IMG/VR virus record: IMGVR_UViG_3300010048_000007
Location: 1-46,262 of that record
Reading direction: 5' to 3' (one strand)
DNA: 46,262 bases
Source of the DNA: a virus
Lineage: Duplodnaviria; Caudoviricetes
The translations under genes were made by a program, and so were the position numbers. The notes beneath the pieces are model-generated. The model made no database searches, had not been told where the DNA came from, and worked only from the letters and a program-made list of their open reading frames with translations. Every line of letters begins with the position of its first letter. Positions within the stretch are counted from its first letter, which is position 1. Below, piece after piece: positions 8,788 to 41,964 of this stretch.

Positions 8788-8885
8788 CGCAGTCCACTGG
8801 GGAATCGTGAACAAGGGTAGCTCTACGCATCCGGAACAGCGTCGGAGCGAACCGGACCCTGCCCCCAAAAATCGGGATCTGTCAA

Positions 8886-9185: not shown

Positions 9186-9190
9186 TGACG

Positions 9191-24554: not shown

Positions 24555-24750
24555 TCATTCGCGCAGGCAATTTTAACTGCACCTCCGCTAAATCCTCTCC
24601 TTGTTGGTTTCGCGCAACCTCCCGCACAACAGTCGGTCCTTGATATGTCTTCGCTACAGTTGGACTCTCCGAGCACACGCACATTTCATTAGTACACCCA
24701 CCAGACCCTGTAAGTGCCACCACCATACAAACACAAGCAAACAGCCTCAT
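24532..24750 (-). CDS. Small putative exported protein or lipoprotein
   Basis: Hydrophobic N-terminus ending GSGGC; ATGA overlap with the upstream gene. Confidence 0.4.
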   Translation of the reverse strand: MRLFACVCMVVALTGSGGCTNEMCVCSESPTVAKTYQGPTVVREVARNQQGEDLAEVQLKLPARMNASLCVC

Positions 24751-25037
24751 GGTTTGCCCTCTAACCTCTTCTCTACCTGCTTACATGTCTCAAGCACCGC
24801 AATAAAATTCCCACCCCCAACAATAATGATACAGCGCGCATTCGGCGAGACAAGTCTGCCATACTGTCGCGGTTCCCTGACAGAAACAACCGCTATCGGA
24901 TTAACTGCAACCTCCTCCCCATCTAGCCCTGTAAATGTAACCAACTCAATTGTCCCTGCAACAGATTCCGGCGGCGGATCGTCTTGGCAGGCACTCAGAA
25001 CCGCTAACCACATCAACAGAACACCAAGAGAAGCCAT
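24747..25037 (-). CDS. Lipoprotein with FlbD-like domain
   Basis: Lipobox VLSA|C; IELVTFTGLDGEEVAVNP...FIAVLETCKQVEKRL resembles FlbD family. Confidence 0.5.
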   Translation of the reverse strand: MASLGVLLMWLAVLSACQDDPPPESVAGTIELVTFTGLDGEEVAVNPIAVVSVREPRQYGRLVSPNARCIIIVGGGNFIAVLETCKQVEKRLEGKP

Positions 25038-25077
25038 CGCATCAGTTTGGCGCTAAATCCACGCCATCGGATAGAGC

Positions 25078-26364
25078 CTAGCCAGCCACTAGCTGCCATA
25101 CCCGTACATACTGAAAATAAAACGGATTATTAAACGACGTGTTACTCGTGCACGGAGTGCCAGCATCCCAATACGATCCCGACGGCAGACATGTCCTAAA
25201 GATCATCACCCACACAATGCCGTTATCCCAATCCGCCGACTGCAGCGCATACGGCGAATTCCCGGCGCTGGACCAATTCACCCCATCCAAAAACATCGAC
25301 ACAATGCCATGCGCCGAGCCATTATTATCCCACTTCAGAGCTATCGTGTGAAATTGGTCATCAAGCGGACCCCCGCTGGTAAAATAATTAGGACTGGCAT
25401 TATCACTACACCCCAAACACGTCGTAATCGGCGCGACAATACTAGGACCACAATAATTTCGGCTCGCCGGATTTGTGCTCTGAACTCGTTCGCACAAATC
25501 TATTTCCCCTTCCCAATCACCCCTGGCCCTAAAATAAATGTCAACATGATACCCATCCCCCTCACCGCTCACATCAGTCGGATACTTTGCGGAAGTCTCA
25601 AAATAGCCAAAGCGTTGGCCAAACCCATTCGTGGTATCTCCTCCCGCCGCCGAAGAAATCCTAGTCCAATAATTCCAATTGCCGGCAGGGATCGAGTTGG
25701 TCGGTCCCATGATCGCCAGCCCGGTCGTCGGACTGCAGCATGATATATAGTCGCCGGTGGCAGGGGGGCCGCTGGGGTCTTGGCCAATCTGCGGGTTCCA
25801 GCTCGACGCAAGTGATGAATCGCTTGTGAACTCATCATCAAATGTTAAATTCCAATGATACCCCGCCGGTGCCGGATTATTGAACGGACACGGCGTCGGT
25901 ACTGGGCCGCCAACCGACGATGTGCACGCACTACTAACCGCACCAGACACATCAAAATGCGCTGACGCACCAATATTCGTGTCTGCCCCATGAATCTGAT
26001 AATTGACCTTGTACCCCCCATTTATTTGCGCTGACGGAGCCGTAAACTGACATGACCAATTCAGCTGACCCGTCGATGGCGCCGTGCGCGCGCAATTGCT
26101 GAATTTCCAGTCATATCCAGCGCCGCCGCACCCGGCCCAATTCGTCGCCGCCGCCGTGCATATCGTCATATTATCATCAGCATTGCCCTGACTTCCCGAA
26201 AGACTGACCGTCATCGTCCCTCCGCCAGTCACTGTCACCGGCGCAATAGTAATACTTGCGCTCGGCGCGCTGACAACCGTAAAACTCGTGCTTACCGCCG
26301 CCCACGCCATCGCCCCACTGCAAACACCTACAATACAAAGGGCAACAAACCGCCAATTAAACAT
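25078..26364 (-). CDS. Signal peptide + Ig-like repeat + GH16-like (ConA-fold) domain
   Basis: WNLTFDDEF, FGYFETSAK, EGEIDLCE (ExDxxE), FHTIALKW, QYVRVWQ; 14 mature Cys. Confidence 0.78.
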   Translation of the reverse strand: MFNWRFVALCIVGVCSGAMAWAAVSTSFTVVSAPSASITIAPVTVTGGGTMTVSLSGSQGNADDNMTICTAAATNWAGCGGAGYDWKFSNCARTAPSTGQLNWSCQFTAPSAQINGGYKVNYQIHGADTNIGASAHFDVSGAVSSACTSSVGGPVPTPCPFNNPAPAGYHWNLTFDDEFTSDSSLASSWNPQIGQDPSGPPATGDYISCCSPTTGLAIMGPTNSIPAGNWNYWTRISSAAGGDTTNGFGQRFGYFETSAKYPTDVSGEGDGYHVDIYFRARGDWEGEIDLCERVQSTNPASRNYCGPSIVAPITTCLGCSDNASPNYFTSGGPLDDQFHTIALKWDNNGSAHGIVSMFLDGVNWSSAGNSPYALQSADWDNGIVWVMIFRTCLPSGSYWDAGTPCTSNTSFNNPFYFQYVRVWQLVAG

Positions 26365-26420
26365 AGTTTATCCCCTTGGGTCTTAGTCAACCACTAGCTG
26401 CCATACCCGAGCGTACTTAA

Positions 26421-27356
26421 TCAGGGATGATACACATGAACGTATTGCATCGTACCATCGGTGGTTTGCGGTGGACAATAAAAAGAGCCACCACCGCCTG
26501 TGTACCAAGCCACCGTTTGAACCACCGTGTTCGTGCCGTAAGGATACATAACTCCGGACTGTACTTCTATTTGCGTCCCGTCGATGTAGGTGCCATATAT
26601 GCCGTGATTATATGTGTTTTGCTGGTAGCCATCGATGTATAGGTAATAGTTCCCGCTGAGGCGTTTCATTCCGACGGTGTGCCAATTCCCATCGCGTATT
26701 ATCTTATCTACATTTACCCAACCACCGCCGTTGTCTAATCTCACGGCACTGGCCTGAGATGATGCTGTTGCATTGCCCCAGATAATCCTGCCCCAGCCGC
26801 CGTATTCCGGCATATCTATTTCCATCCCGGTGGGATTATAGCTCTGAAAAGCGCCGCCCGCACTCTCAAACCAAAAATCGGTATCGTCGGTACTGGGACT
26901 CCCGGGAGGCGTGATTCGACGTTTGTATTCAACATAAAAGTCGCCGGGTAAATTCAAATTGGAGTTCCATATATAAGGAAGAAAATGATAGGTCCCTGTT
27001 CCATAACTGCCACTCACGAGATATTCTCCGGTGTGCACTCCCTCATTGGTATAATATGGGAGTGCTTGCTGGACAGTGCAGGTTCCCGTTGTGTCCGGTA
27101 CAGCGAAGCCCTGGCCATAACCCGGCGGGAGTGATGTCACCTTATCAAAATCTGCAGAAGCCGTAGTGTCACACGGCCACGACACCCCGGCGGCGGCACT
27201 GTTGTCGGCGTCACCGCAGGTGCCACCACCACCGCCGCCACCGCCACCACCACCACCACTAGTGACGGTGAACGGTGTTGATACAACTGCATTGGCGGCG
27301 CCGACAAGAAGGCATAGTATCAATACCGCAAGAATAACCACCCGAGCGTTCCTCAT
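26421..27356 (-). CDS. Signal peptide + poly-Gly linker + GH16-like domain
   Basis: FYVEYK, MEIDMPE, WHTVGM, YIDG, QYVHVY; 4 mature Cys. Confidence 0.72.
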   Translation of the reverse strand: MRNARVVILAVLILCLLVGAANAVVSTPFTVTSGGGGGGGGGGGGTCGDADNSAAAGVSWPCDTTASADFDKVTSLPPGYGQGFAVPDTTGTCTVQQALPYYTNEGVHTGEYLVSGSYGTGTYHFLPYIWNSNLNLPGDFYVEYKRRITPPGSPSTDDTDFWFESAGGAFQSYNPTGMEIDMPEYGGWGRIIWGNATASSQASAVRLDNGGGWVNVDKIIRDGNWHTVGMKRLSGNYYLYIDGYQQNTYNHGIYGTYIDGTQIEVQSGVMYPYGTNTVVQTVAWYTGGGGSFYCPPQTTDGTMQYVHVYHP

Positions 27357-27377
27357 TGCGCTGTCACCGAGAAGTGA

Positions 27378-30050
27378 TCACGGATGATATACATGAATAT
27401 ACTGATATACAGTGTCGGAATTAGCTTGCGGGCAGCTATATTGCGGATAAGGGTGCCACCCTTGAAAAATCCAAACCATTTGTGAAGTAGCAAAACTCGA
27501 ATATTGTGGCCCACCAATGCCTTTTTGCGGTCCAGGCCACGGAGTACCGCCAACCGAGTTCGTCGATACCTGAACACCATCCACCCAAAACGTAAATTGG
27601 GCAGTAGCACTAGAGCCGGAGCCGGAGGTTGTCCTAACCATTCCTACCGTGTGGGGATTGGTATCGGCATTAAAATTGCCGAGTTGCGGCCATGCACTAG
27701 GCGGATAATAATTGTATCCTTGATCGCCCGGTCCGCTACCACCCCAGCCTGGGCTCCACAAGAACCAGTTCAATGTTGTGCCTTCAGGTAGATCGATTTC
27801 CGTACTCGTGCTCGAAGCACCCACAAGCGGTTCAGGCGGTCCCGGAACACCAGAATTTTCTGAAAAGAAATCCGAGTTTATCCAATAGTAATTTCCTGGT
27901 GGAAGCTGCCTTTTCTTATACTCGATATAGAAGCTGCCCGCTGGGCCGCTCCACTTGGAATAGGTTTGTGCGCCCACAAAGGTGGCGTTAGTACCGGCAA
28001 CATTTGACTGATGCAATCCCTGACTATCTAGCATGGGAGGATACCCAGTAATTGTGCTACAAGCGCCTGTACTTGTATCTACCGGCGTCAGATTGCCAAG
28101 ATAATACGAGCCTGCTGTCCATTTTGATGTGTTGAACACACCTCCATCGCGGTCAAAATCATCGCTCATCGCTGAGTCACAAGTCCAGTTTGACGGAACA
28201 CCAGCCGCAACATGATTATCGGCATCCTGACAGCCGGTGCCGCCGCCGCCCCCACCGCCGCCGTCGTAGGTGTTGCTGGCAAACCATGCGGCATAGTAAC
28301 TCTGCGGCGTACTTGGTACGGACATGTTGCAGGATCCCGAAGGAACGATCGCGGTCCCCGCCGTCTGCGAGCAACTATTTGTATACGCCCATGAATATCC
28401 CGCAGCGTCACAATTCGCACTATTAAAAGTAGCAGAATTACAGATCATAATCCGGCTATTTGCATTCTGCCCCGGCAGCGGCCCATTGCTCCAGGCAAAT
28501 GCCGCTGTAGAGCCGGCCGTCACTGTAGCATTACTGCTTCCGTTGACAGTGATGGCAGGCGAACCGCTGGTCACCGAGAACGGTGCCGATGCGCCGACAT
28601 TATAAGCAGAAACTGCAACATTAAAATAGTTAGCAACGTAATTGCCCGCCACCGCTGGTGCGATGAGCGAGCAGTTATTTGATGTAACCCCGGGGGCTGA
28701 AGGCGCCGCTTGACTGCAATTTTTTAGATATGCCCAACTATATCCTGCGCCGTCACACTGCGCGTTTGATGCCGTCACCCCAGCATTACATATTCCAATC
28801 CAGTCGTTCGCATTCCCGGCGCCGCCGCTCACCGCCACCGTCATGGAAGCACCGCTCGCCACCGTTGCGCCACTTGACTGCCCATTCACCGTGATCCGCG
28901 GCCCCGCAGCAGCAGTCACCGTCACCGTCTGCGGCCAGCAGCTCGGAGAATTGCTCACCCCACTCATCGTCGCAACTACACCTACGCGATACGCCCGTAC
29001 TGTACCAAGATTGGTTGATGCCGCCGTATTCAGATTGGCTGTCCCAGACGGCACGGTGAACGAGTTATTATCTGCGGTATCTGCCGCCGCGCACCCAGTT
29101 CCCGTCCCTACCGCATAGGATGCCGACGCCGGACACGTCGCCGAGCACGTCGTTGAGAGCGTGCCAACCGTTCCAGCGAAACCCTGTGCTATATTGTTAG
29201 GAGGAGGACTAACGGAAACTCCAGTGATCGATGGCTGGGTGGAGCCGCCAACCGTGAAGGGAGCGCTTGCATAAACCGGAAGGCTAAAATTATTACCAGT
29301 CCATCCCGCGAAGACAGCAAAATAATTGCCGTTCGTACCCGGCGCTGTCATCGCGCATGTTGCCGATGCCAGCCCCGTTGCTGGCGGCGGCTTGTTACCC
29401 GGCGGCTCACCGCTAAGAGAACTGCAATCTAAATACTTCCCGTCATAGCCGGCCGAATAACAGGACCCCCCCGAAACGGACGCCCCATCCGCATTGCAAA
29501 TCATCATTGTATCTGTATTATGCGCGGGGCCACCGCTGACCGCCACGCTGATCGAGGCCCCAGCGGTCACTGTCGTGCCCGTCGTCGAGCCATTGACGGA
29601 AATAGCTGCGGTAACCGCGCCTTGGGCCGTTATACTCTGCCCAAACCCCACGCCATTGACATATACGTTCCCAGTAACAGTGGTACCAATACAAATCAAA
29701 TATGATCCGGCCCGAAGTCCGCCGCCGGAGATATCGGGGCCACTTGGATTGATGCTCAATGTGTTACCCTGAACCAAGAAATCCTGATTGTTTGCTGAAT
29801 TTGTGGAGGTGCAATTTGGTGCCGTCACTGACAGTGCATAGGACGGACTAGTACATTGCGCCGGCGTGCTGCACACCGTCGAGATCGTAGCCACCGTACC
29901 CGAGCAGGGCGCCGTACACGTATTGGCGCTCAAATTCTGCTGCTGAATCACCGCACCGACAGTCAATTGCGTCTGCTGAACATACGCCAATGCTCCAGCC
30001 GACATTCCTATAGCAACAATGACGCTGACTATCCAGCCGCTGCTTTTCAT
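27378..30050 (-). CDS. Signal peptide + five cadherin/Ig-like Cys-paired repeats + GH16-like domain
   Basis: Repeats ITVNG...IC...C...GY.W...C...C and CS..C...C...NN.F; TEIDLPE, HTVGM, QYIHVY; 26 Cys. Confidence 0.75.
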   Translation of the reverse strand: MKSSGWIVSVIVAIGMSAGALAYVQQTQLTVGAVIQQQNLSANTCTAPCSGTVATISTVCSTPAQCTSPSYALSVTAPNCTSTNSANNQDFLVQGNTLSINPSGPDISGGGLRAGSYLICIGTTVTGNVYVNGVGFGQSITAQGAVTAAISVNGSTTGTTVTAGASISVAVSGGPAHNTDTMMICNADGASVSGGSCYSAGYDGKYLDCSSLSGEPPGNKPPPATGLASATCAMTAPGTNGNYFAVFAGWTGNNFSLPVYASAPFTVGGSTQPSITGVSVSPPPNNIAQGFAGTVGTLSTTCSATCPASASYAVGTGTGCAAADTADNNSFTVPSGTANLNTAASTNLGTVRAYRVGVVATMSGVSNSPSCWPQTVTVTAAAGPRITVNGQSSGATVASGASMTVAVSGGAGNANDWIGICNAGVTASNAQCDGAGYSWAYLKNCSQAAPSAPGVTSNNCSLIAPAVAGNYVANYFNVAVSAYNVGASAPFSVTSGSPAITVNGSSNATVTAGSTAAFAWSNGPLPGQNANSRIMICNSATFNSANCDAAGYSWAYTNSCSQTAGTAIVPSGSCNMSVPSTPQSYYAAWFASNTYDGGGGGGGGTGCQDADNHVAAGVPSNWTCDSAMSDDFDRDGGVFNTSKWTAGSYYLGNLTPVDTSTGACSTITGYPPMLDSQGLHQSNVAGTNATFVGAQTYSKWSGPAGSFYIEYKKRQLPPGNYYWINSDFFSENSGVPGPPEPLVGASSTSTEIDLPEGTTLNWFLWSPGWGGSGPGDQGYNYYPPSAWPQLGNFNADTNPHTVGMVRTTSGSGSSATAQFTFWVDGVQVSTNSVGGTPWPGPQKGIGGPQYSSFATSQMVWIFQGWHPYPQYSCPQANSDTVYQYIHVYHP

Positions 30051-30063
30051 ACCGCTAGTCCTC

Positions 30064-33000
30064 TCAGTTTATCGTGAGAGTGAAGTCTGTGCAAACCGTC
30101 GGCCTGAATTGAACGCATATGTGTGTCACATGTGTGCCTATATCGCTCGGAGTGAAATTGCGCGCTTGATAGACGCTTAGATTATAAACAAGGAATAAAT
30201 CTTCATCGCTGGTGGTTATCCCCTCGTTAACAACAGTTCCGTTATTCGTTGGAATTGTTGCGGTAGCTAATGGATTGGTAACAGCGACGAGATTGCCGTT
30301 CCCACTGGGTATGGTAGCAGTATTGGGGCGGGTGGCGGCGGTATGATCCAACGTGATTCCCGTAACTCCCACCGCCGTAGTAGACGTGCCGTTCCATGGA
30401 TTAATCGATGCCACTGGCAATTCCGGATAATAACTCCCATCATAATGGCTGTTGCCAAAGCCATTTGGCCATAGTCTGTCCATAGCAACCATCTTAAATG
30501 AATCATTGCCCATATTGCACGCTTCTTGATCAGTATTGACCTGCATGTTCTCTCTAAAATGAGTGTTGCCCGGACCTTGGATACTCGCAAACAAATTATA
30601 TTGCCACGTTAGTAATTTGTTATTGTGCTCCCAGGGGGAGCGGCTGCCATCACACCACTCTGTCCAAAAGATAGCTTTGTTATGCTTTGCCGCAAAGCCA
30701 GTCACCATCTGTCGCTGACTATTTGAAAACTGGTCAATATAAATGTTAGCTGAGCTCGGTGGGCCTTGAGTATAAACGTAGTCATCTAGAGAAAACGCAT
30801 CCACCAGATCAGCGATAGATACTGGTACTCCGGGTCCAGTATACTCTAAATATGGTATCATATTGAGTCTGGCGGGGCCGTCTATGTCGAATTTTAAATT
30901 TGGGTTACAGCCATTTGCCACGCCGCAATCACGGAGCAATGCTTGTAACATTTTGAGTTCGTGCGCAACAGCGGTCGACCAACGGGCAGGAGATACATAT
31001 GCAATAAAGGCATCTTGCTGCCATGGAGAAAAGTATTCCCAGCCACAGCACCATTCTCCCTCTATGCGTATGTAATACAGCATATTGGCGTCGGGCCTGA
31101 GATACGTCGTAATGATGTTACTAATCGAACTATCCCATGTGCCCGCTGCAATTGCATCCCACTCTACCGGGCCCTGTATATGATAGATCGCTTCGCTGGT
31201 CATTGCTTCGCTGGGAATCGTTCCAACATTTACCTCAACTTGATAATTACCAAGGCCGGGTCCTCCGCTGGTGACTTTGACTTGCCCCGATGGAATGCCG
31301 GCGGCAAACAATCCATCTCCCACCCTTGGTCCGTTGCCGCTGCTTATCGCGGTGATGGTGAGGGTGGTGCCCGAGATCGAGCCGGTGAACGCCGAATGAT
31401 AGGCAGCGCTGCTTATCGTACTAGCGAGTGGGTATGGGGTCCCGTCGCGGCTGTCCACCAAATTTATCGTATAAACTCCTGCGGTCGGACCAGTGATTGA
31501 TCCAACGCTCGCGCAGCATGCCAGAGCACCGTTCCATTCACTAAACCAGATCTGCCATCCGGGGTTGATCTGGGAAGTCGCCCAGCCCTGCGCGCCATTT
31601 ATCGCCGCCAGCGTTGTGAACGTGAAGTAGGTATTCCCTGCCGTGCCGTTTACCCCACCCATGTAATTGGCATGCGGACCCCCGTCCGACGGCGACCCAT
31701 TGATATTGACGAGCACCGTGCCCCACCCCGCATTGCCCGGGATGCCCGGCTCGCCCCCCCATGTGTTGCTGTCCACGCCCCAACCGCAAATGTCACACGA
31801 CGGCTGCCCACCAACGCCATTCGGCAATCGGCCCAAGAAGGCCGTGGAAAATGGAGCAAAGCCGGTGCTGTAGGCCCACTGCGACAGCTGCATCGTCATT
31901 GGAATCGCTGTCTTGTTACACTGCCCTGGAGGCGTGGTGCTGCCCTGCACCGGCCCCGGCACACCCGGGTTGCATGGGTCGGTGTAGATGTGCCACGCCG
32001 ATCCATCCCAGTTAAACCATTCAAAATTCCTCAAATCATAAGCGTATAGATTTGGGTCACCTGGAATTGTTTCTAGTTGAAACGCTCCATAGTTTGTCCC
32101 AGGTTCTTTGAAATTACCGATCGTCGGTGGGTTAGTGAGCACACCGTTGCGCAACACCGGCCAATTGCCCTCGAGATCGGGCGCAAAACAGCCGGAACAG
32201 AGGGGAGCTGTTTTGTCAAACGACCATGTCGCACCAAAGCTGTCTTGAATTGTAGCCATAGAGGCCGGATTATTGGCATTAATAACTGTCGCCTGCAGCT
32301 GAGTTGTTCCAGTAATAGTAAATTCCGTATACTTCGAAGGGCCCGCGCTTGGCTGGCTGGTCTGTACGCAGATGTGATACGTGCCAGCCGCCGGGGCTGT
32401 CGTATTTACTGTTGCATTACCAGCACCGCCAAGTGAAAAATTTGTGGTATCTCCTTGATCGGTACAACCGCTGCTGACCAAATTATACGACCCGGCAAAC
32501 CCAGGCTGCGACGGAATCATCACCGTACTCAGTGTACCCACCACTTGTGGGGTTCCCGGCACAAATAAGCAACTCGAGGGGCACGCCAGCGTCGTCGCCC
32601 CAAGCGTCTGCGATGCCGCGCTCCCAACGATCGTAAATTCCTGATTCAGGGAGGCCATTCCCGACTGCGCTGCCCGAACACAGACATAATAGGTGCCTGC
32701 CGGTGGTACCGTTGCCGTTGTCTGCAGGGTAAACGTCGGAGCACTTCCAGCAATCTGGAAGTGAGTCATATCGATTGTGCCCGTACTACAATTAGTCCCG
32801 CCACTAACCAGCGTCATCGAGCCCGCGAAGGTTTGCGATGTGGGTTGCATCGTAGCCGACAATGTGCCAATCGTAAGAGGACCGCTCCCTCCCGTATTAA
32901 ACCCACAGCTGGGATTGCATGATAAGTTAATCGCGTAGATCTGAGTAGTACTGCCAGCCACTGTTGCAACAACCGACCACGTACAGTTGTCTTGGCTCGA

Positions 33001-33384
33001 TGTACAATCCGGCAACACCGGCGCAGCGTTTGTCGACAGCGCCCCGCTCGACGACATTGTCAAATACCCAGGCAACGCGCTGGCAGTAGCCGGGCACCCG
33101 GATTGGCTCGGAGTGCAAAGCGCAAAAGTGCCCGACGGAGTCGTTCCATCACTCATATGAATGACATACTGCGCAATCGTCGAGTTCTGGGGAGTCGTGT
33201 CCGGGATACATAAAGAGACATTAGGGCCAGTCGGACACACTCCACTGCCAGTCGCGGTCACTGACGCGATCGTAGGCGGCCCAGCTGGCCCTGGCGGTGA
33301 GCCGCCGCTCGGCATAAACAGCGCGTCAGCCCGCCACGCTAGCAGCACCAGAATGGCTACAAGCGAGAAAAGCCGCCGCATCAC
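30064..33384 (-). CDS. Signal peptide + cadherin-like repeats + GH26-like TIM-barrel domain
   Basis: WDAIAAGTWD, YIRIEGEW..GW, VDAFSLDDY, KHNKAIFWTEW match GH26 acid/base and nucleophile contexts; 30 Cys. Confidence 0.7.
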   Translation of the reverse strand: MMRRLFSLVAILVLLAWRADALFMPSGGSPPGPAGPPTIASVTATGSGVCPTGPNVSLCIPDTTPQNSTIAQYVIHMSDGTTPSGTFALCTPSQSGCPATASALPGYLTMSSSGALSTNAAPVLPDCTSSQDNCTWSVVATVAGSTTQIYAINLSCNPSCGFNTGGSGPLTIGTLSATMQPTSQTFAGSMTLVSGGTNCSTGTIDMTHFQIAGSAPTFTLQTTATVPPAGTYYVCVRAAQSGMASLNQEFTIVGSAASQTLGATTLACPSSCLFVPGTPQVVGTLSTVMIPSQPGFAGSYNLVSSGCTDQGDTTNFSLGGAGNATVNTTAPAAGTYHICVQTSQPSAGPSKYTEFTITGTTQLQATVINANNPASMATIQDSFGATWSFDKTAPLCSGCFAPDLEGNWPVLRNGVLTNPPTIGNFKEPGTNYGAFQLETIPGDPNLYAYDLRNFEWFNWDGSAWHIYTDPCNPGVPGPVQGSTTPPGQCNKTAIPMTMQLSQWAYSTGFAPFSTAFLGRLPNGVGGQPSCDICGWGVDSNTWGGEPGIPGNAGWGTVLVNINGSPSDGGPHANYMGGVNGTAGNTYFTFTTLAAINGAQGWATSQINPGWQIWFSEWNGALACCASVGSITGPTAGVYTINLVDSRDGTPYPLASTISSAAYHSAFTGSISGTTLTITAISSGNGPRVGDGLFAAGIPSGQVKVTSGGPGLGNYQVEVNVGTIPSEAMTSEAIYHIQGPVEWDAIAAGTWDSSISNIITTYLRPDANMLYYIRIEGEWCCGWEYFSPWQQDAFIAYVSPARWSTAVAHELKMLQALLRDCGVANGCNPNLKFDIDGPARLNMIPYLEYTGPGVPVSIADLVDAFSLDDYVYTQGPPSSANIYIDQFSNSQRQMVTGFAAKHNKAIFWTEWCDGSRSPWEHNNKLLTWQYNLFASIQGPGNTHFRENMQVNTDQEACNMGNDSFKMVAMDRLWPNGFGNSHYDGSYYPELPVASINPWNGTSTTAVGVTGITLDHTAATRPNTATIPSGNGNLVAVTNPLATATIPTNNGTVVNEGITTSDEDLFLVYNLSVYQARNFTPSDIGTHVTHICVQFRPTVCTDFTLTIN

Positions 33385-33893
33385 TTTGCCCCCAACCCCC
33401 AGAGATCGTATTCCGGCTTGCCAGTTGTCTCATTCAAAAAGAAATGCACCGTAACAGCCGAATCCTTCCCCATCGTCTGTGTAAACCCTAACGGCGATGG
33501 ATTTGCGGTCACGCCCGGACCAGGAACAACCAAAACAGTCCCACCACTTGTTCTTTGTACAAGCGACAGATCACAGGGATCACTCAGCCCATTATTATTA
33601 ATCGTCACAGTGACCGGCGAGCTCGAAGTATAATGTATGTGCTTGGCACAATCCGCGAGCGTCGGCGCGTCAGCCACACCAGAAAACACTCGCTTGGGCG
33701 ATTGCGGCCCTGGCGGCGCCGTCATCGGCACAGGAGTCCGCGGCGCCTTCACGTCTGTAGAAAACGGCATATATGGAGTACCCCTCTCCATTGGCGGCCT
33801 CAACTGATGCTTGGTGGACGGCGGCATTCCCGTTTGCGCGAATGCTGGCAGCCCCGATGCCATCAACAGGCCCACCATCACGAGCATTTTCAT
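33381..33893 (-). CDS. Signal peptide + tail-fibre distal-type domain
   Basis: MKMLVMVGLLMASGLPAFA|Q; TLADCAKHI...VTVTI...LVQ..GGTV.VVPGPGVT...YDLWG resembles fibre C-terminal domains. Confidence 0.6.
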   Translation of the reverse strand: MKMLVMVGLLMASGLPAFAQTGMPPSTKHQLRPPMERGTPYMPFSTDVKAPRTPVPMTAPPGPQSPKRVFSGVADAPTLADCAKHIHYTSSSPVTVTINNNGLSDPCDLSLVQRTSGGTVLVVPGPGVTANPSPLGFTQTMGKDSAVTVHFFLNETTGKPEYDLWGLGAK

Positions 33894-33903
33894 GTATCGA
33901 TCC

Positions 33904-34656
33904 TCATGGGTGTTTCAATGCCGCGATTACCCCAATTACGGCGCCGGTACCATTACTAGGATAATTGGCCGTAACACTATTGGCACCGAGAACACCGTTA
34001 GGGTTATACCCAAAGAACGAAGTCCCAGAGAACATTGTCCAGCCGCTGCTCAAGCTCGCACTGGCACCACTATTTGCAACAAATCCCGCAAAGATGAGCA
34101 GCTCGCCCGTCTGTGACGCGCCCGCACCAGCAAGCGCGACTGTTACTGAGGTGCCAGTGGTTTGTTGCAGGTTGCCCACGCCATCATCGGGTGAGGCATT
34201 CGCACCACCTACATCGACATAGGCTATCTCTGGATAATAGACTCCTGTATAGCTCACGACCGGAATAATCGTCCCGTCGCCAGTCACTGGGCACCACCAA
34301 ATCTCCGCCTTTACTGGAGCGGCTGCCGTACCAGGACCACCAGCAAACCCCTGACAAGAACCAATTGTCGCTGTCCCTGAGCTTTTCGTTATACTTGTTG
34401 TGTAGTCGGTCAAGGTACCTGTGCACGACGAATCAGGGCAATAACTCGTCATCACCAACAGAATATGACCATGCGTAACGGTTGTCGCCGCGGTCGGCGT
34501 ACAACTCGTCAATGCGCTGGAGCCTGGGCAAATATATATCTGAAAACCAGTTAGCACAAAGCCGCCGCCTCCGCCGCCGCGAGCCAGTACCATATTGGCG
34601 TGTGCCGCTCCGGGCAGCAGCAGCAATATCGGCATCAATAAAACAAGCCGTATCAT
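33904..34656 (-). CDS. Signal-peptide beta-rich adhesin-like protein
   Basis: MIRLVLLMPILLLLPGAAHA|N, poly-Gly, two-lobed beta-sandwich pattern like 17795..18904; 6 Cys. Confidence 0.6.
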   Translation of the reverse strand: MIRLVLLMPILLLLPGAAHANMVLARGGGGGGFVLTGFQIYICPGSSALTSCTPTAATTVTHGHILLVMTSYCPDSSCTGTLTDYTTSITKSSGTATIGSCQGFAGGPGTAAAPVKAEIWWCPVTGDGTIIPVVSYTGVYYPEIAYVDVGGANASPDDGVGNLQQTTGTSVTVALAGAGASQTGELLIFAGFVANSGASASLSSGWTMFSGTSFFGYNPNGVLGANSVTANYPSNGTGAVIGVIAALKHP

Positions 34657-34694
34657 CTGATGCCCCTTGACTTACTCTGAAATACCTGACAGCC

Positions 34695-34883
34695 ATGGCT
34701 CCCATGGATGAAGAACATTGGAAGCCCATTCCCGGCTACCCAGGATATGAAGCCAGCAGCCGAGGCTGGCTTTACCACAAAGGAACCGTGACACAAGTTG
34801 CTCTCGCCAAACGCTTCGGCGTTTCGTCCATGACTATTTCTCGCGTTGTTCATTACTTCACTTACCCTGTAGCTCATCTGTAA
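34695..34883 (+). pseudogene. Internally deleted NUMOD4-HNH homing endonuclease remnant (NUMOD4 start fused to terminal HTH)
   Basis: EEHWKPIPGYPGYEASSRG (NUMOD4) joined directly to TQVALAKRFGVSSMTISRV (HTH); no HNH core. Confidence 0.7.
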
Positions 34884-37800
34884 GTGACTTGTACAGTTCC
34901 CCACCCTGTACTGCTCGCCCACCCCGCTCCTGTAGCTATCGCCCCGACCCAGTACCCCGATGGTATCGCTGGATAGGCCACTCCCATCGCCTGTTCGGTT
35001 GCCGCTCCGCTATTCGCGTTGCAAGAAGTGCTATTGACCTTGTACGCAGAACCACTATTAAACGCCACCGCACTAGCCGCAGTGTAGATATCTATTGTCG
35101 CAGTGCCTCCTACCAGGACATCAGGCCGGCAAGTGACCCCTGTAATCACCCGCGGCGTAGCCCAACGCCCAAATGATATTCCAACTGCAGCAGCCGAAAG
35201 ATTTTGCCCCGACCCCCACGTCAGATCGAAATATTGGGCTGGACCCAAAGGTACCAAGAACGCCCCCGTTCCTGTCACTCCGCTGGTCGTTACATAGGTG
35301 TCAATATCAGCCGGGATGGTTATTGCTGCATTAGCCGCCCCACCGCCGACTTGACCATTGTCAATCGCATCACCTGATGCGGCAGTCGGCGCAAGTTGTA
35401 CGGTTACTCCGACCGTCTGGATGTGAACTCCACCATTGGTCGCCAATGTCACCGCTGCCGGCAGCGTCAAAGTCAATCCAGCTGTAGTAAAACGAAATAC
35501 GGCCGCTGAATTCCATTCGCCCCCGGTAACCGTATGAGCTGATGGATTTGTCGACACCAATGGCGCCACAGGCCCATTGAGGCACACCCAATTCGTCCCA
35601 TCAGTAACAAACTGCGCATCCCAGGTTATCGCGGGAAGTGTAGCCGTAAGATTGAAACCGCAGCCGTAAATTTGCCCCGCGGCACTCGAAACTGAATAAG
35701 AGTGATTAGCGTCAGAAATTGTCGAAAACGACGACGTTCCGATAGCACCTGGTGCCGGTAACTGCACCGTAACTCCAGCCACTGTCGGCATATTCAGATA
35801 AGCCCCATCTGTTGCCGCCAGAGGAAAGGTACCTGCCGTGCTTATCGTCCGCACCCAGGCCTGAATCGAAAGAGTACCACCATTTGCGATGTTCTGGGTG
35901 CCGGTATTGTAAACGCTAGCGTTACTAGTAAGGCCGGGGTTCAGAGTGAAGTTGGTCATTGGGCAACCGCCACCACTGCATGGCGAAAGTGCTATTAATC
36001 GACCATCTGCTCCGACGCTGATAAGAGGATTCACTACCCCGTTCTGCGGCGACACCGTTGTATTCGGAATAACCGCCGGGTTAATATGGCCAGCCCCATC
36101 GAGCTGCACCAGCGCATTGTTGGTCTGACCCGTTGAGAACGCGAGTGGGGCATTCGTACTACCATTCGCGGTCGTCGCGGAGCTAGCAACCGGAATTAGC
36201 CCTGCCGTCTGGTTTGAGAGCCCGCCAACCGGCGCCTGAAAACTTGGCGCCACCCCAGCTCCGCCTGAAGTTAATACCTGACCTGCCGTCCCAACGCTCG
36301 CCAAACAGGAAACCGCCGTTCCCGTCGCCGCATAGTAGGCGGTAGAAAAGGCAGTGGTGCAATTATTAACTGTGCCGCTTCCCGACGCTGGCGTCCCGAG
36401 CACAAACTGATTGCTCGCATTGAGGCCGATCCACTGCGTGACTGTACCGGCCGCCAGGCCTGTCGCTGAGATCGCGCCACCTACCGACAAGGCCCCCGAG
36501 AAGGCGCCTGTCGTCGTGGAGATCGGCGACTTCTCGTTACCGGCCGCGTCGGTCGTCAACACGGTGTTGACGCCGGTGGTGTTAACCGGAAGGCTGCTCG
36601 TAATGGTCGTCGCGGAGCCGGCTACCGCGAGTTGGCCGCTCGACATTCCCGAAAGCGCCGCCTGGAAGGACGGCGGCCCAGAAGTGCTCCACGTCAGCAC
36701 CTGGCCGTTAGCGGTACCGTTCGTCAGGCACGACACCGCTGTGCCCGCGGCCGCGTAATAGGCCACGGAGGGAAATGTCGTACAATTGTTGACGGTCCCC
36801 GCACCACCGCCACCGCCCGGGGGGCCGAGCACGACCTGGTTGTTTGAATTGAGCCCTAGGGAGTTGACCACGGTGCCGGAGCTCAGGCCCGTGAACGTGA
36901 GTGCACCACCGACCGATAGAGTGCCGGTAAAGGCACCTGTCGTCGTACTCACCGGAGCGAGCATCAGGCCCGCCGCGTTAAGCTGCACCAGCGCGCTAGG
37001 ACCTGTGTTCGCCACCGCCAGTCCGGTGTTCAAAGCGGTGCCGACGGTGTTGGCCCAAGTCGGAACGTAACCAGGTGTGGTAACACCAGGGCCACTGATC
37101 CCGCCGCCGCCTCCGGCTGGCGGGATCCCCCAGCCGTTGTCCCACAAGATTTGCGTGTGATTGCTCGTGCCGGGTGGCGGAACGGCGCCTGACAGCGCGC
37201 TGGTGTAGACCTGGATGTTGCCGGTCAGCTGCGTGTTGGTTAGCCCGGCAAAGGAAGCAGGCGTTCCGCCAGCGTTGTACTGCACTTGCCCGGGCAGACC
37301 TTGTGCCTGGGTCACCGCGGCGTTCAAAGTTTGATTTGGGTAGGTGCCGCTCAGCGTGAGGTTATTGCCGATACCCAATGGTGCCAAGCTCGCGCCGCCG
37401 CTGACGACAATACCAGGATTTGGCACGGCAAGCTTGCCGAGGGCGCCGCCGCCGAGATTATTCCAGGTCGTCGCGGTCGACGCCACATCGGCCAGGTTAT
37501 TGACCGGGTTGAGCGGCGTGTAGCCAATGTTCGCCACGGCCGCGCCTACCGCCATCTTGGCGTTGCTGACCGCGTTGTTTGCGATCGTGTTCACGGTGGC
37601 GCCGGCGGCGCTGACCACATCGCCGCTGTAGGCCGGCATTTGGGTCGACGCCAACTGTCCCGCGAAATCAGGGAAGCCCAAAGTCAGCGTGCCGCCGAGC
37701 GAAAGCGAGTGCGTGTTGATCGTGACGCTACTGTTCGCAAGCTGCGCATTCGGCAGCGCCGAGATAGCGAGTTGCGAGCCCGACAGCGTCAGGTACGACG

Positions 37801-38059
37801 CCAGCGTGCCGGGGCTGACGGTGACCCCCGAGGCATTGTAGATCGTGATCGCTTGCGGTCCGCCGCTGTTGATCGTGGCGGTCGCGGTAAACGCCCCGCA
37901 GGGAGTGGCCTGTCCGCCTTGGATCGCGGTGACGCCTTGGCCGCCAGTGCAGGTGACGTTGCCCGGCGGCGGCGGATTGACCGGACCACCAGCTCGAGAA
38001 CCGGCTGGGATGAGCGCGATCAGCGCCGCGAGGAGAAGTGCCCTTAATTGTAGTTGCAT
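34874..38059 (-). CDS. Long tail-fibre-like protein with N-terminal signal peptide
   Basis: MQLQLRALLLAALIALIPAGSRA|G; fibre motifs LANSSVTIN, TIANNAVSNAKMA, GYTPLN..NNLADV, GTAGQVLTSGG...PSFQA; internal ~140-aa duplication; 12 Cys. Confidence 0.75.
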   Translation of the reverse strand: MQLQLRALLLAALIALIPAGSRAGGPVNPPPPGNVTCTGGQGVTAIQGGQATPCGAFTATATINSGGPQAITIYNASGVTVSPGTLASYLTLSGSQLAISALPNAQLANSSVTINTHSLSLGGTLTLGFPDFAGQLASTQMPAYSGDVVSAAGATVNTIANNAVSNAKMAVGAAVANIGYTPLNPVNNLADVASTATTWNNLGGGALGKLAVPNPGIVVSGGASLAPLGIGNNLTLSGTYPNQTLNAAVTQAQGLPGQVQYNAGGTPASFAGLTNTQLTGNIQVYTSALSGAVPPPGTSNHTQILWDNGWGIPPAGGGGGISGPGVTTPGYVPTWANTVGTALNTGLAVANTGPSALVQLNAAGLMLAPVSTTTGAFTGTLSVGGALTFTGLSSGTVVNSLGLNSNNQVVLGPPGGGGGAGTVNNCTTFPSVAYYAAAGTAVSCLTNGTANGQVLTWSTSGPPSFQAALSGMSSGQLAVAGSATTITSSLPVNTTGVNTVLTTDAAGNEKSPISTTTGAFSGALSVGGAISATGLAAGTVTQWIGLNASNQFVLGTPASGSGTVNNCTTAFSTAYYAATGTAVSCLASVGTAGQVLTSGGAGVAPSFQAPVGGLSNQTAGLIPVASSATTANGSTNAPLAFSTGQTNNALVQLDGAGHINPAVIPNTTVSPQNGVVNPLISVGADGRLIALSPCSGGGCPMTNFTLNPGLTSNASVYNTGTQNIANGGTLSIQAWVRTISTAGTFPLAATDGAYLNMPTVAGVTVQLPAPGAIGTSSFSTISDANHSYSVSSAAGQIYGCGFNLTATLPAITWDAQFVTDGTNWVCLNGPVAPLVSTNPSAHTVTGGEWNSAAVFRFTTAGLTLTLPAAVTLATNGGVHIQTVGVTVQLAPTAASGDAIDNGQVGGGAANAAITIPADIDTYVTTSGVTGTGAFLVPLGPAQYFDLTWGSGQNLSAAAVGISFGRWATPRVITGVTCRPDVLVGGTATIDIYTAASAVAFNSGSAYKVNSTSCNANSGAATEQAMGVAYPAIPSGYWVGAIATGAGWASSTGWGTVQVTYR

Positions 38060-38406
38060 GCGTAGGTTGACCCTGTCGCCGACGCGATGATCGAAATCCG
38101 CGGCGGGATCGGATCAGAAGCGTTCCAAATAAATCCCGCGCCTGGGGCCATGCCTGTCGAATTGCCGGTGCACAGCGTTCCCGAGATCGTCGCCGTACCG
38201 GTCAGACTCCAACAGAGCTGCGCACTGGAAATGTTTGTCAGCCAGACATAGCCCTGCGGTGACGGCGGCCCGGTACCGCTGGACGGAAAAACCACATTGG
38301 ACGCTGTGGTGGTCGCCGTGCCGTTGCACGCGCTAACCTGGCCCGCAGCGGCCAGCGCAGCCACCGGAAGGAGCCACAACAGCAGGAAGGCTATCAGGTG
38401 CATCAT
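38044..38406 (-). CDS. Small signal-peptide beta-sandwich protein
   Basis: MMHLIAFLLLWLLPVAALA|A; 4 Cys. Confidence 0.65.
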   Translation of the reverse strand: MMHLIAFLLLWLLPVAALAAAGQVSACNGTATTTASNVVFPSSGTGPPSPQGYVWLTNISSAQLCWSLTGTATISGTLCTGNSTGMAPGAGFIWNASDPIPPRISIIASATGSTYACNYN

Positions 38407-38576
38407 CTCTTCCTCGAGGCTCCACGCTTGCCCTTACCGGCCCCTTGTTTCACAATTGTTGCGTAGCCGATCGACTTAGCCTCTTTGGCCGATTTGCCCG
38501 CCTTGCGCTCGGAGGCCGCTATGTGGGCGGCTTGCCGATCTTGCTTTTCGCTGAAGCGATGTCCCTTTCCTGGCAT
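38403..38576 (-). CDS. Small basic protein (KQ.RQA.HI...YAT..K motif)
   Basis: 57 aa, GGAGGAG RBS, ATGA overlap with the downstream gene. Confidence 0.6.
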   Translation of the reverse strand: MPGKGHRFSEKQDRQAAHIAASERKAGKSAKEAKSIGYATIVKQGAGKGKRGASRKR

Positions 38577-39768
38577 CAAGCTCCTCCTCCAACTGCGCGA
38601 CACGCGCCTCAAGCCGCTGCACCGCCACCACCAGCGGCGCGATCAGGCCGGTGTATTCGAGAGTTTTGGAGCCGTCCGGTTGGGTTGTGACGAGCTCGGG
38701 GAACACCCGTTCGACATCTTGCGCGGTAAACCCGAGATGCTCGGGGCCATCCGGCGCGCGCGTCCAGCGAAACGATACCGGGTGCAGCTGCGCTATCCGG
38801 GCCTCGACATCAGGATCAAGTGGTCGAGTGGTCTTAAGCCGCGCATCCGACGAGCACGACCACGATGTGCCGCCATTAAAGAAACAGCTGCCACCGCTTG
38901 TGTCGACAGATACCGATAAGTTGCCATCCCCCAAATGTACATAACTGGTAGTATTGTCAATATGCGCGATATTTCGATACGTGTTTGATGTATCTTTTGC
39001 AACAAACGATTGATTATTATCTATACCAACACTCCCACCCGTTACCGTGATGCCACCGTGTATCGTGGCGGTGTTGTTTATAGTGGCGCCACCACTTATC
39101 GTTAAGCTGCCGCTAGAATTAAGAGCGGTAGAGTCGATGCTTGTGGCATGGAAAGCATTAGTAAAGAAAATTCCGCTGCCATCAAGGCGTACCACACAAT
39201 TCGATGTATGAGTGTCAAAGCAAACCCCATTTAAAGCAACATCGCCGACATGAATATTATTTGCGGTGTCGATGTAAGTTCCATTACGGTAAGTACCGCC
39301 CGTATCTTTGTATTGTATACCGACGTTGTTATCCATTTGGACGCGGCCGCCGGAACCAAAGTTGCTAAAGAGATTTATATTGCCGGTGTAAATCGTGCCG
39401 TTAGCTCCGGTATTGCCCACGTTCAAAATGCGAGAACTGTCATTAAATGACAGATTTGGCGGATCTTGCCCAAGCTGAGTTGTGGTTGTTGCAAAGACGA
39501 CGGCACCCTGCACCCAACCCGAAGTGTTGCCAGTGCCGCCATAAGTGACACCCAAAATGCCCGAATTGATGTTACTGGCGTTGGCGGCGTTGTTGCTGCC
39601 GGCGCAGTTCTCCACGGTGGTAAAATTTGCGTTCATCTGGCCGGGATCAATGACGGTGCCGGCAACGAAAGTATTCGGAACTTGGCACGGCGCCGCCATC
39701 GCGCGGCCCGCGAGGAACAGGAGAACCCCGAGGAACAGAAGAACAAAGAAAACAGCGAGCAGTTTCAT
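38476..39768 (-). CDS. Tail fibre with signal peptide, N-terminal anchor domain and C-terminal peptidase S74 intramolecular chaperone
   Basis: MKLLAVFFVLLFLGVLLFLAGRAMA|AP; PNTFVAGT...QMNANF anchor; SDARLK...HLGFTAQDVERVFPELV...LEYTGLIAPLVVAVQ; ATGA coupling to the nozzle gene. Confidence 0.85.
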   Translation of the reverse strand: MKLLAVFFVLLFLGVLLFLAGRAMAAPCQVPNTFVAGTVIDPGQMNANFTTVENCAGSNNAANASNINSGILGVTYGGTGNTSGWVQGAVVFATTTTQLGQDPPNLSFNDSSRILNVGNTGANGTIYTGNINLFSNFGSGGRVQMDNNVGIQYKDTGGTYRNGTYIDTANNIHVGDVALNGVCFDTHTSNCVVRLDGSGIFFTNAFHATSIDSTALNSSGSLTISGGATINNTATIHGGITVTGGSVGIDNNQSFVAKDTSNTYRNIAHIDNTTSYVHLGDGNLSVSVDTSGGSCFFNGGTSWSCSSDARLKTTRPLDPDVEARIAQLHPVSFRWTRAPDGPEHLGFTAQDVERVFPELVTTQPDGSKTLEYTGLIAPLVVAVQRLEARVAQLEEELDARKGTSLQRKARSASRPHSGLRAQGGQIGQRG

Positions 39769-41405
39769 AGGCCTGGCGACGACATATAGCCGGTGCGCTG
39801 ATAGCGCAGGTAGAGGTTGCCGATTGCCACCGGAACCGTCGACTGCCCGGCAAAGAGCATCTGCATCTGTTTGAAAACCAACGGCTGAGACCACGGTATC
39901 GTGCGCTGCACCAAGGCCCCGGATTCAGTTCCCCACCTTGCCTGACCCCAGACCGCCTGACCCCAGATCGCCGCCCCGGTGCCGCCATAGCCCTGGATCA
40001 TGACAGTCGGAGCCAGCATCACCCCCGTTTCGTCCAGGGCCTGAACAGTGAGCGCGTTGCCCGCGGGCAGTGCCAGCAGCAGCGAGCTCTCAACCATGAA
40101 ATTCATTGCCATCGCGCCAGTGTCCGGCATAAGGCACGATGTCGCGATGAACGTCAGCGGCACGCCATTCTCGGCATAAGTCGAGTTGGCACGCGCCATC
40201 ACCTCGGATTGCCATATACCCGGCGGCGTACCGGCTGGCGGAAAGAGATAGAACGATTGATCGGTCGCGCTGGCGGCGATGACCCCATAAGGAAAGGTAT
40301 GCGGTCCCGACCAAGTACCCTCCGGATTGCCCTGATCCTTGATCGTCGGGTGATACCAGTAATCGAACGAGCCCAGCGTGCCTGAAATCGCGGTTTGGAT
40401 CGTGACCCGGTAGACATCCTCCTGATACGCGGCGGCGGCTCGGGTCGGAGTGACTATGTTGACAAACGGCGACTGCACCCCCTTGCCATCTGTCCCGATC
40501 GGCTCCTGGATGATGCCGAGAGGGTCGATCCGTCGCAGCCCATCATGCGCTAAGAAAAATAAGCCATAGGGCGAAGATGCAATCGATAGCGGCGCCAACG
40601 TCCCGGTTTCGTTACTCAGTTGATTGACCGCCAGATTACTGGTGGTCGGATCACCGGTAATCTGCTGGATTGCTGAAGCCCCTTGAAAAGCGATCAGGGC
40701 CTGCGTAATACCACCGGTCGTTGTCGCCAGCGGCAAACCGGCAAGGGCGGTGATCGTCAACCCGTTGCCCATGCCGAGCACTTGCACCCCAGAGGCGCCG
40801 CTGGCCTGCAGCGGATTACCGACATCGGAGAACGCCAGCGCATTGCCGACCGCGTAGTAGGCTCGACCGAAAAACTCGGCGACGGCTTGCGGCACCGCTA
40901 CCAACGGGTTGGTGGCCAAGTCGCCGGCCGACCACGCCGGAGATGCCGGGTTTGAGGCGTCGACCCAGCCGAATTTGGTTGCCCCGCCCGGAAAGCCGGG
41001 GTGCGTGTAGATAAACCGAGGTCCCACCTGCGCGATCGTCGGCGGCACCCAGTCACCGCTCGCGCTGGTCGACACCGGCGTGTTAGCTGAGGTCACCCCG
41101 GAGATCGCAACCAGGCTTGAGATCGAGGTGTCCCAGCAGAACGGCTCCGAATGGCCGGTGAAGGTGCCGGAGGTCACCATGCCGTAGATCCGCGCGCCTG
41201 AGACAAAAGCGGACTCGACCCTGCCCGAGAAGCTGGCCACTTGGATGCAGGCCGGCCGCAGCACGAACAGACCGCGGGTATGCAGGCTCGGGATCAGGTT
41301 CTGCAGGCTCGCGGCCGCACCGCGGCCGACATTAGTGCTGTCGAGCGCGTCGCTGAGGGTGCGCCAGCGAAATGTCAGCGGGGTGGCGTTGCGCAGCGGC
41401 ATCAA
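39765..41405 (-). CDS. Tail nozzle / tubular protein B (P22 gp10-like)
   Basis: 546 aa beta-propeller-like, GLFFLAHDGL; follows adaptor. Confidence 0.7.
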   Translation of the reverse strand: MMPLRNATPLTFRWRTLSDALDSTNVGRGAAASLQNLIPSLHTRGLFVLRPACIQVASFSGRVESAFVSGARIYGMVTSGTFTGHSEPFCWDTSISSLVAISGVTSANTPVSTSASGDWVPPTIAQVGPRFIYTHPGFPGGATKFGWVDASNPASPAWSAGDLATNPLVAVPQAVAEFFGRAYYAVGNALAFSDVGNPLQASGASGVQVLGMGNGLTITALAGLPLATTTGGITQALIAFQGASAIQQITGDPTTSNLAVNQLSNETGTLAPLSIASSPYGLFFLAHDGLRRIDPLGIIQEPIGTDGKGVQSPFVNIVTPTRAAAAYQEDVYRVTIQTAISGTLGSFDYWYHPTIKDQGNPEGTWSGPHTFPYGVIAASATDQSFYLFPPAGTPPGIWQSEVMARANSTYAENGVPLTFIATSCLMPDTGAMAMNFMVESSLLLALPAGNALTVQALDETGVMLAPTVMIQGYGGTGAAIWGQAVWGQARWGTESGALVQRTIPWSQPLVFKQMQMLFAGQSTVPVAIGNLYLRYQRTGYMSSPGL

Positions 41406-41944: not shown

Positions 41945-41964
41945 AAATACAGTCTCCAATACAA

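Follow-up and report, generated by a model that had tools for sequence, protein, structure and literature searches.

A likely periplasmic maturation route for the leader-bearing tail-fibre module of a short-tailed-type phage

In the textbook view, the assembly of tailed-phage particles is completed inside the cytoplasm, ahead of lysis. In the virus genome IMGVR_UViG_3300010048_000007, analysed here over its full 46,262 nucleotides (the window), ten proteins encoded on the minus strand, that is, the first tail fibre (38476-39768) and nine accessory proteins, carry signal-peptide-type leaders together with even numbers of Cys residues. The feature is real and marks this fibre module as a variant of the podovirus type, one that likely matures in the periplasm; in the reading proposed here, the first fibre and the nine accessory proteins are probably exported, disulfide-folded in the periplasm and joined to the particles only when the envelope is breached. 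The record holds the complete virus genome, bounded by direct terminal repeats, and its sequence is present in soil metagenome runs, with no RNA dataset listed among them.

The ten open reading frames (ORFs) lie exactly where an earlier note on this DNA had placed them, and each N-terminus is built as described there, a basic residue preceding a hydrophobic core that leads to an A-x-A-like site. Leaders were called by a custom rule (basic start, hydrophobic core, cleavage-type end) and not by SignalP; as the note had expected, they are found in the ten proteins and are absent from capsid, portal and nozzle, the rule accepting all ten and none of the 26 other genes, which include those of capsid, portal, terminase, adaptor, nozzle and three ejection proteins. 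The mature Cys counts given in the note were reproduced exactly and all are even (Table 1), against 13 of the 26 control genes, or eight of the 21 having any Cys (Fisher p=0.006 and 0.001, respectively); in particular, capsid, portal, adaptor and nozzle display neither leader nor parity bias. The odds of 1 in 1000 attached to this parity were too strong, because five of the ten proteins share paralogous domains; counted as six units, they give p ~0.016, nearer 1 in 60. Leaders of this type combined with even Cys numbers make export by the host Sec system very likely, and, since no 19-residue window of the mature chains exceeds 1.36 on the Kyte-Doolittle scale, none of these chains has a membrane anchor. 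The list of ten exported genes was right as far as it went; it misses two exported-type genes with lipobox-like N-termini (24747-25037 and 24532-24750), and a loose lipobox pattern also flagged 38044-38406.

The earlier note had allowed that the true starts might lie downstream of the hydrophobic segments. The leader starts are mostly supported: the Shine-Dalgarno (SD) duplex reaches -5.8 kcal/mol or better at seven of the ten (0, -3.0 and -3.3 at the others), and the first-fibre start, whose SD value is 0, overlaps the stop codon of the nozzle gene. The first fibre and some of the other nine genes do contain internal in-frame starts, with fair SD scores in some of these nine.

The export and oxidative folding suggested by these features are backed by comparison with relatives, in which the same motif occurs with and without a leader, the leader starts are coupled to the gene upstream and the Cys pairs of the motif are found only where a leader is present. 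Related loci were gathered by alignment of the nozzle-like protein (the best 80 of 332, plus others, for a total of 86); in 76 of them the gene after the nozzle opens with a conserved motif of ~45 residues, and these 76 loci form 53 clusters at 90% nozzle identity. A survey of relatives for conserved signal peptides, recommended in the note, reveals a leader before this motif in the first fibres of 22/53 clusters, the remaining 31/53 being leaderless (the rule called 24 leader-bearing; L022 and L028 were moved to the leaderless class because their 16-residue extensions have no cleavage-type end); prophages of Burkholderia semiarida and Paraburkholderia tropica are among the leaderless forms. 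Leader start and nozzle stop overlap in 17 of the 22 and are <=15 nucleotides (nt) apart in the remaining ones, and in 16 of the 22 no start codon is present 4-10 codons upstream of the motif, the window fibre being among the six with one; on these two grounds, the leader start is taken to be the real start. Across the family, small residues occupy positions -3 and -1 right before the motif, and in many members Gln comes next. The first gene after the nozzle in L018, L022, L028, L035, L045, L053 and L056 carries N-terminal extensions of 12-19 residues that are not signal peptides, mostly with Phe and Arg near their end; these genes make up two clades basal to the leaderless group, and the extensions may represent a vestigial or a different leader.

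The Cys residues track the leader. A Cys pair within the motif occurs in 11/22 leader-bearing as against 0/31 leaderless first fibres, a single Cys never being seen there, and the pair is found in three separate subgroups of the nozzle tree; among complete first fibres with any Cys, the number is even in 17/21 leader-bearing versus 6/17 leaderless ones. An independent set was obtained by searching 1.84 billion representatives with a profile of the motif, which returned 3430 proteins; the best 150 were analysed, and comprise 54 with leader, 92 leaderless and four unclassified, some being shared with the loci above and some possibly fragments. In this set Cys numbers are even in 48/54 leader-bearing versus 57/92 leaderless proteins or, when only proteins with any Cys are considered, in 40/46 versus 19/54 (p=2e-7), and motif Cys pairs are present in 12 leader-bearing proteins and in no leaderless one.

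The fibre identity of 38476-39768, and its likely attachment to the virion, are supported by several features of its sequence: the gene follows directly that of the nozzle-like protein, the product ends in an S74 chaperone domain and matches tail-fibre PHROGs (best E=4.5e-19), and leaderless orthologues exist, which together make it likely a virion fibre. Its matches in cultured phages are limited to the C-terminal part. The leaderless fibre of L007 shares 27% identity with it over 400 aligned positions, S74 included, and has five Cys with no pair in the motif. The claim that all ten proteins form a receptor-binding apparatus therefore stands for the first fibre, which is supported as a fibre, and not for the other nine, which have no match to a tail-fibre family. 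In the Burkholderia-type relatives (L016:3358, L051:3576, L077:3533 and others), a second gene bearing a distant version of the fibre N-terminal motif is found upstream of the nozzle.

As to the motif itself, its structural model (predicted local distance difference test, pLDDT, 70) consists of an extended segment and a helix. Against the PDB, all six rows returned were tail complexes of T7, Kp9 or PhiM1 (T7-type), at Foldseek E values of 5-9, and against BFVD many rows were T7-type fibre or spike proteins (best E 0.24); the best re-alignment superposes residues 1-44 on 78-122 of 8E4G_Y, a weak match (Z 4.0, root mean square deviation 2.4, 43 residues). Searched as a profile against PDB sequences, the motif matches weakly two tail-fibre shafts (E 0.04 and 0.08).

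The accessory proteins are mosaics of cadherin-like, SKICH-like immunoglobulin (Ig) and lectin-like domains, the lectin matches being weak (E about 0.02). The repeats of 30064-33384, which also contains a PPC match (E=2e-7, at 32305-32937), align with those of 27378-30050 and 17795-18904; 27378-30050 matches SKICH at E=0.003 and has Ig-like/SKICH neighbours in the ESM Atlas at a template modelling (TM) score of about 0.76, and four Cys positions are kept across four SKICH-like repeats. The lectin-like domain of 26421-27356 is paralogous to the end of 27378-30050 (30% over 335 amino acids, aa), with weak laminin-G matches (E=0.02-0.05), and its single-sequence fold reached a pLDDT of 33 only; 25078-26364 has a weak GH16 match (E=0.02), and both homologues found for it bear leaders; 17795-18904 aligns with 27378-30050 at 27% over 175 aa and shares its N-terminal domain with P0275/P0276. 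In the long protein 34874-38059, possibly a hub, the C-terminal 245 aa are 40% identical to a leader-bearing gene product of L002, and the nearest ESM clusters are viral, one being named tail-fibre C-terminal (score 0.86, a lead only). No family match was obtained for 38044-38406, 33904-34656 and 33381-33893, the first of which has only loose alignments, with small genes that occupy its position in relatives; docking domains like those of T4 gp10, suspected by eye in 34874-38059 or 33381-33893, were discarded, as no family match was found.

Leader-bearing genes downstream of the nozzle number 39 in 25 loci of the clade versus four in 29 other loci, and such accessory genes are, judging from these sequences, a clade trait; among the other leader-bearing tail-module genes of the clade (the window copy L001 excluded), 27/33 have even Cys. 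In the two nearest complete relatives the first fibre has no leader and its neighbouring accessory genes are of exported type, so that the clade holds a cytoplasmic-anchor design as well as a fully exported one. On the fibre-module genes of these two relatives, leaders of twin-arginine translocation (Tat) type, read by eye, are mixed with Sec-type ones (L007:16320-17123 and 19309 onward; G001 24982-27780). Elsewhere in the clade, leader-bearing genes with even Cys lie beside the portal gene (G004 8061-10436, G005 5847-7595, G008 13494-15546), possibly encoding exported head or neck fibres, and at G003 3840-4424 the phage encodes a protein that combines a signal peptide and a PEP-CTERM sorting motif.

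In the scheme proposed here, late transcription would supply both the particle parts, which stay in the cytoplasm, and the fibre parts, which leave it; Sec would export the ten proteins and signal peptidase would free them, the Dsb system would pair their cysteines and S74 would assist the trimer folding of the first fibre, these steps being established knowledge on hosts and chaperones. Short N-terminal peptides would link the accessory proteins to one another and, upon failure of the inner membrane, fibre-less particles would meet finished fibres. The components of the scheme differ in strength: little doubt attaches, given the leaders, to the predicted Sec export and leader cleavage of the ten proteins; disulfide bonding by the host Dsb system is strongly expected; the first fibre likely trimerises via S74 and docks on the tail by the motif of its leaderless relatives, with the adaptor-like protein (41965-42939) as candidate docking partner; the chances that most accessory proteins become part of the particle, forming a branched appendage on it, seem about even. 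We infer that the virion acquires all ten at lysis, attachment being likely for the first fibre only. The late addition of fibres in a cell-free setting is feasible, as indicated by the P22 tailspike, which joins the particle after all other parts and can attach to tailless heads in vitro, outside cells (available text of bioRxiv 10.1101/2021.09.20.461090).

A link between two accessory proteins may be provided by donor-strand complementation. In the last SKICH-like repeat of 27378-30050 the profile match ends at 95/114, at the turn before the final strand, and a poly-Gly stretch follows; the final strand is kept in the three other SKICH-like repeats of the window and in six of P0275/P0276, where the match reaches 112-114. 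Candidate donors were scored with a profile of the six final strands from outside the window against 4757 scoring windows: the score of the stretch that follows the leader of 26421-27356 is equalled by 2/4757, both genuine final strands, and that of the weaker candidate in 25078-26364 by 7/4757. From these sequence matches, it is quite possible, if somewhat short of probable, that the N-terminal strand of 26421-27356 plugs into the incomplete Ig repeat of 27378-30050; the match could alternatively be the trace of a gene split, with no binding involved. A second donor link, from the N-terminus of 27378-30050 to the first repeat of 30064-33384, was not supported, as 79/4757 windows score as high and the repeat is unmatched by the profile. 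Only tentatively can the whole be pictured as a two-compartment virion, in which a capsid and tail core made in the cytoplasm would receive at release, by snapping on through a conventional tail-docking motif, a disulfide-stapled, branched adsorption appendage of several proteins, whose periplasmic assembly would rely in part on pilus-like donor-strand complementation.

Several observations weigh against this reading. Odd Cys counts occur in 4/21 complete leader-bearing first fibres and in 6/54 leader-bearing members of the 150-protein set, and the leader trait is clustered, leader status requiring only two changes on a quick nozzle tree in which the window row is a long branch, so that the Fisher values overstate independence. 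Moreover, tail-fibre families (Pfam, PHROGs) are recognised in 38476-39768 alone, the structural matches of the motif are below significance (Z 3.4-4.0), and the SKICH-like Ig repeats are also found in P0278, which looks cellular and contains a subtilase. Codon 24 of the first fibre (39697-39699), just before the cleavage site, is an in-frame ATG with a weak SD (-2.6), which would yield a leaderless fibre. Family scans of the genes of this complete genome recognised no endolysin, and the moment at which particles and fibres meet thus lacks an explanation here. Finally, the main texts of PMC10811340 and PMC12796354 describe disulfide-rich virions with no mention of a signal peptide, and even Cys alone need not mean export.

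Some of these points feed an alternative in which roles are split: only the first fibre, perhaps with 34874-38059, would sit on the virion, and the Ig and lectin proteins would act at the envelope of the infected cell or free, as adhesins, as superinfection receptor masks or as decoys. The nine proteins with no tail-fibre match and the repeats shared with the subtilase-containing protein speak for it, together with the strong variation of the accessory set among relatives (from none to many genes), the position of 17795-18904 outside the block and the pairing, in the two nearest complete relatives, of a leaderless first fibre with exported accessory genes; but the accessory genes lie directly behind the fibre gene in a late structural operon, their products have no membrane anchor, no gene of the phage could be recognised as encoding a secretion channel and 34874-38059 is most like viral clusters, the last being a lead. 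On balance we regard it as unlikely.

Dual starts, by which the virion fibre would be made leaderless from an internal start and be oxidised spontaneously after lysis, the leader form being a side product or having another job, appear improbable. The codon-24 ATG lies six codons before the motif, at the start site of the leaderless relatives, some start codon is present there in 6/22 leader-bearing fibres, and the main text of PMC13576161 proposes that cysteines in virions become oxidised spontaneously; but 16/22 fibres have no such codon, the internal ATG of the window has the weak SD noted above, the leader start is nozzle-coupled in 17/22 and the motif Cys pairs are absent from leaderless fibres in both samples (0/31 and 0/92).

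Even less credit can be given to uncleaved leaders acting as membrane anchors, by which fibres would be tethered to the inner membrane and picked up by particles, or particles would mature there before release: the hydrophobic core of the first fibre is indeed long and strong (12-residue mean 3.3), and the failure to find an endolysin in this genome would fit, but the small-residue sites right before the motif are family-wide, and several clade members have ordinary endolysins. Chance or artefact, that is, coincidental hydrophobic N-termini and even counts or a misassembly, can be set aside as barely conceivable, given that the comparative counts (53 clusters, 150 proteins) exclude chance and that, against a second assembly (L001/L006) which near 31262 has two substitutions and a 1-nt insertion shortening 30064-33384, one public-run contig (possibly the source assembly) spans 24500-40000 with no difference, pieces of the block are matched exactly by three other studies and a contig of another study is identical to 31119-31553, backing the window version.

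Table 1. Features of the leader-bearing module and of its genome surroundings (positions in the window)
Feature	Position	Strand	Remarks
First tail fibre, 430 aa	38476..39768	minus	6 mature Cys
Signal peptide of first fibre, 25 residues	39694-39768	minus	
Docking-type motif of first fibre	about 39559-39693	minus	contains Cys28/Cys55
C-terminal S74 chaperone of first fibre	38686-38850	minus	PF13884 E=2e-15
Small exported-type protein, 120 aa	38044..38406	minus	4 mature Cys
Long Gly/Ala/Thr-rich fibre-like protein, 1061 aa	34874..38059	minus	leader; 12 mature Cys
Exported-type protein, 250 aa	33904..34656	minus	short N-terminal peptide and Gly linker; 6 mature Cys
Exported-type protein, 170 aa	33381..33893	minus	Pro-rich N-terminal half; 2 mature Cys
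Exported-type protein, 1106 aa	30064..33384	minus	Ig/cadherin-like repeats; 30 mature Cys
Exported-type protein, 890 aa	27378..30050	minus	two repeats of cadherin-like and three of SKICH-like Ig type, Gly linker, lectin-like C-terminus; 26 mature Cys
Last SKICH-like repeat of 27378-30050	28260..28562	minus	final strand absent; candidate donor-strand acceptor
Exported-type protein, 311 aa	26421..27356	minus	Gly linker, lectin-like domain; 4 mature Cys
Candidate donor strand of 26421-27356	27258-27287	minus	ten-residue stretch right after leader, then Gly linker
Exported-type protein, 428 aa	25078..26364	minus	SKICH-like Ig, GH16-like lectin domain; 14 mature Cys
Weaker candidate donor strand of 25078-26364	26269-26298	minus	
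Exported-type protein, 369 aa	17795..18904	minus	between last ejection gene and PurD-like gene; C-terminal cadherin-like repeat; 4 mature Cys
Lipobox-like small protein	24747-25037	minus	lipobox read by eye; 2 Cys beyond lipid Cys
Second lipobox-like small protein	24532-24750	minus	lipobox read by eye; 4 Cys beyond putative lipid Cys
Tail nozzle-like protein	39765..41402	minus	named by gene order; no leader, cytoplasmic; stop overlaps first-fibre start (ATGA)
Endonuclease	41402-41959		between adaptor and nozzle genes; PHROGs match
Head-tail adaptor-like protein	41965..42939	minus	named by gene order; no leader; kept in related loci
Terminase gene		minus	late operon; PHROG 38
Major head protein gene		minus	late operon; PHROG 1357
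Ejection gene with SLT domain	20921-22858		sole muralytic match in genome
PurD-like ATP-grasp gene	16478-17767		after ejection genes and tenth leader gene
DUF1153 domain gene	11255-11659		domain match

The minus strand is organised as a late operon of short-tailed-phage layout, with genes for terminase, portal-like, scaffold-like, major head, adaptor-like, endonuclease and nozzle-like proteins followed by nine leader genes, two lipobox-like genes, three ejection-type genes, the tenth leader gene and the PurD-like gene. The portal, scaffold, adaptor, nozzle and ejection names were assigned by gene order and size, with no family matches; the nozzle-like protein has 209 homologues and no match in Pfam or PHROGs, and the three ejection-type genes contain no Cys, one of them carrying the SLT domain. 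A gene of similar size occupies the position of the endonuclease, between adaptor and nozzle, in L003, and the PurD-like gene is retained after the ejection genes in leader-bearing and leaderless relatives alike. No endolysin was found among 43 ORFs scanned from the nearest relatives G001 and G003; endolysins are present in G004, G005, G008, L003 and L088. As a probe for endolysins, phrog_7 matched 6/23 records and missed genomes with other lysins, so that it provides no test of absence. Genome scans turned up no integrase or polymerase match, and the predicted promoters (18 versus 12.0 +/- 3.6 expected) and terminators (20 versus 18.3 +/- 4.3) in 23000-42000 are uninformative.

The DUF1153 domain, which we take to represent the SciP-type family of cell-cycle regulators in Alphaproteobacteria, points to a host from that class, and the gene may serve host manipulation. 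The labels of metagenome-assembled genomes were distrusted as a guide to the host, being discordant for the three contigs with leader-bearing matches (uncultured Burkholderia, Burkholderiales and Ca. Cybelea). Searches of 50,697 phage records with nozzle and adaptor gave no match and hence no cultured member of the clade; the nozzle profile matched a single PDB sequence, a decoration protein, and the matches of adaptor, 26421-27356 and first fibre to PDB sequences were uninformative.

The union, in one clade, of an ordinary fibre motif with a signal peptide and Cys pairs implies a periplasmic branch of morphogenesis. If true, the phage would gain access to disulfide-stabilised Ig and lectin folds, its infectivity would depend on Sec and Dsb of the producer cell, and fibres and particles of different infections might mix after lysis. 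Leader-bearing and leaderless orthologues offer a ready-made comparison pair; for annotation, the practice of dropping signal-peptide genes from structural modules can overlook receptor-binding proteins. In the literature covered (titles and beginnings of abstracts, in a collection with few subscription papers), no description of exported or signal-peptide-bearing fibres of tailed phages was found, and the available texts of PMC3556154, PMC13412088 and PMC13596461 have no bearing on them.

Among known systems, the closest are the fibres and tailspikes of podoviruses (T7 gp17, P22), for which cytoplasmic folding with no signal peptide is the textbook case: as in these, the gene follows the nozzle, the motif weakly resembles T7-type N-termini and S74 is present as in many phage fibres; unlike them, the motif follows a cleavable-type leader and holds a Cys pair, 31/53 related clusters being leaderless. 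In filamentous phages pIII, with its signal peptide and disulfides, is likewise a receptor-binding protein that passes through host export, but it is membrane-anchored and its virion is extruded with no lysis, whereas here a capsid-and-tail phage and unanchored proteins are concerned. Donor-strand complementation is known from chaperone-usher pili, which share with the present module an Ig domain in which the last strand is missing and a partner with a similar stretch at its mature N-terminus; they differ in that no usher or chaperone gene is recognised here, and that one acceptor and two candidate donors, with no homopolymer, are involved. Disulfides in structural proteins of tailed phages are documented for the Agrobacterium phages Milano and 7-7-1 and for a siphovirus tail tube, where they link capsid, neck, sheath or tube subunits (PMC10811340, PMC12796354, PMC13576161; the words "signal peptide" and "periplasm" have no occurrence in the three main texts); in the window, unlike there, both leader and parity bias are missing from capsid, portal, adaptor and nozzle. 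Lastly, the MAT proteins of Bdellovibrio bacteriovorus combine a signal peptide with a phage-like trimeric fibre ending in S74 (PMC10769870, whose main text does not contain the word "disulfide"). As described in that text, they are cellular surface adhesins with a beta-rich domain, conserved and ~130 aa long, after the leader, and by this description they are set apart from the phage-encoded extended-plus-helix motif of ~45 aa found here; what they have in common with the first fibre is the leader on an S74-terminated fibre, and they show that a fibre of this build is able to leave the cytoplasm and to mature beyond it.

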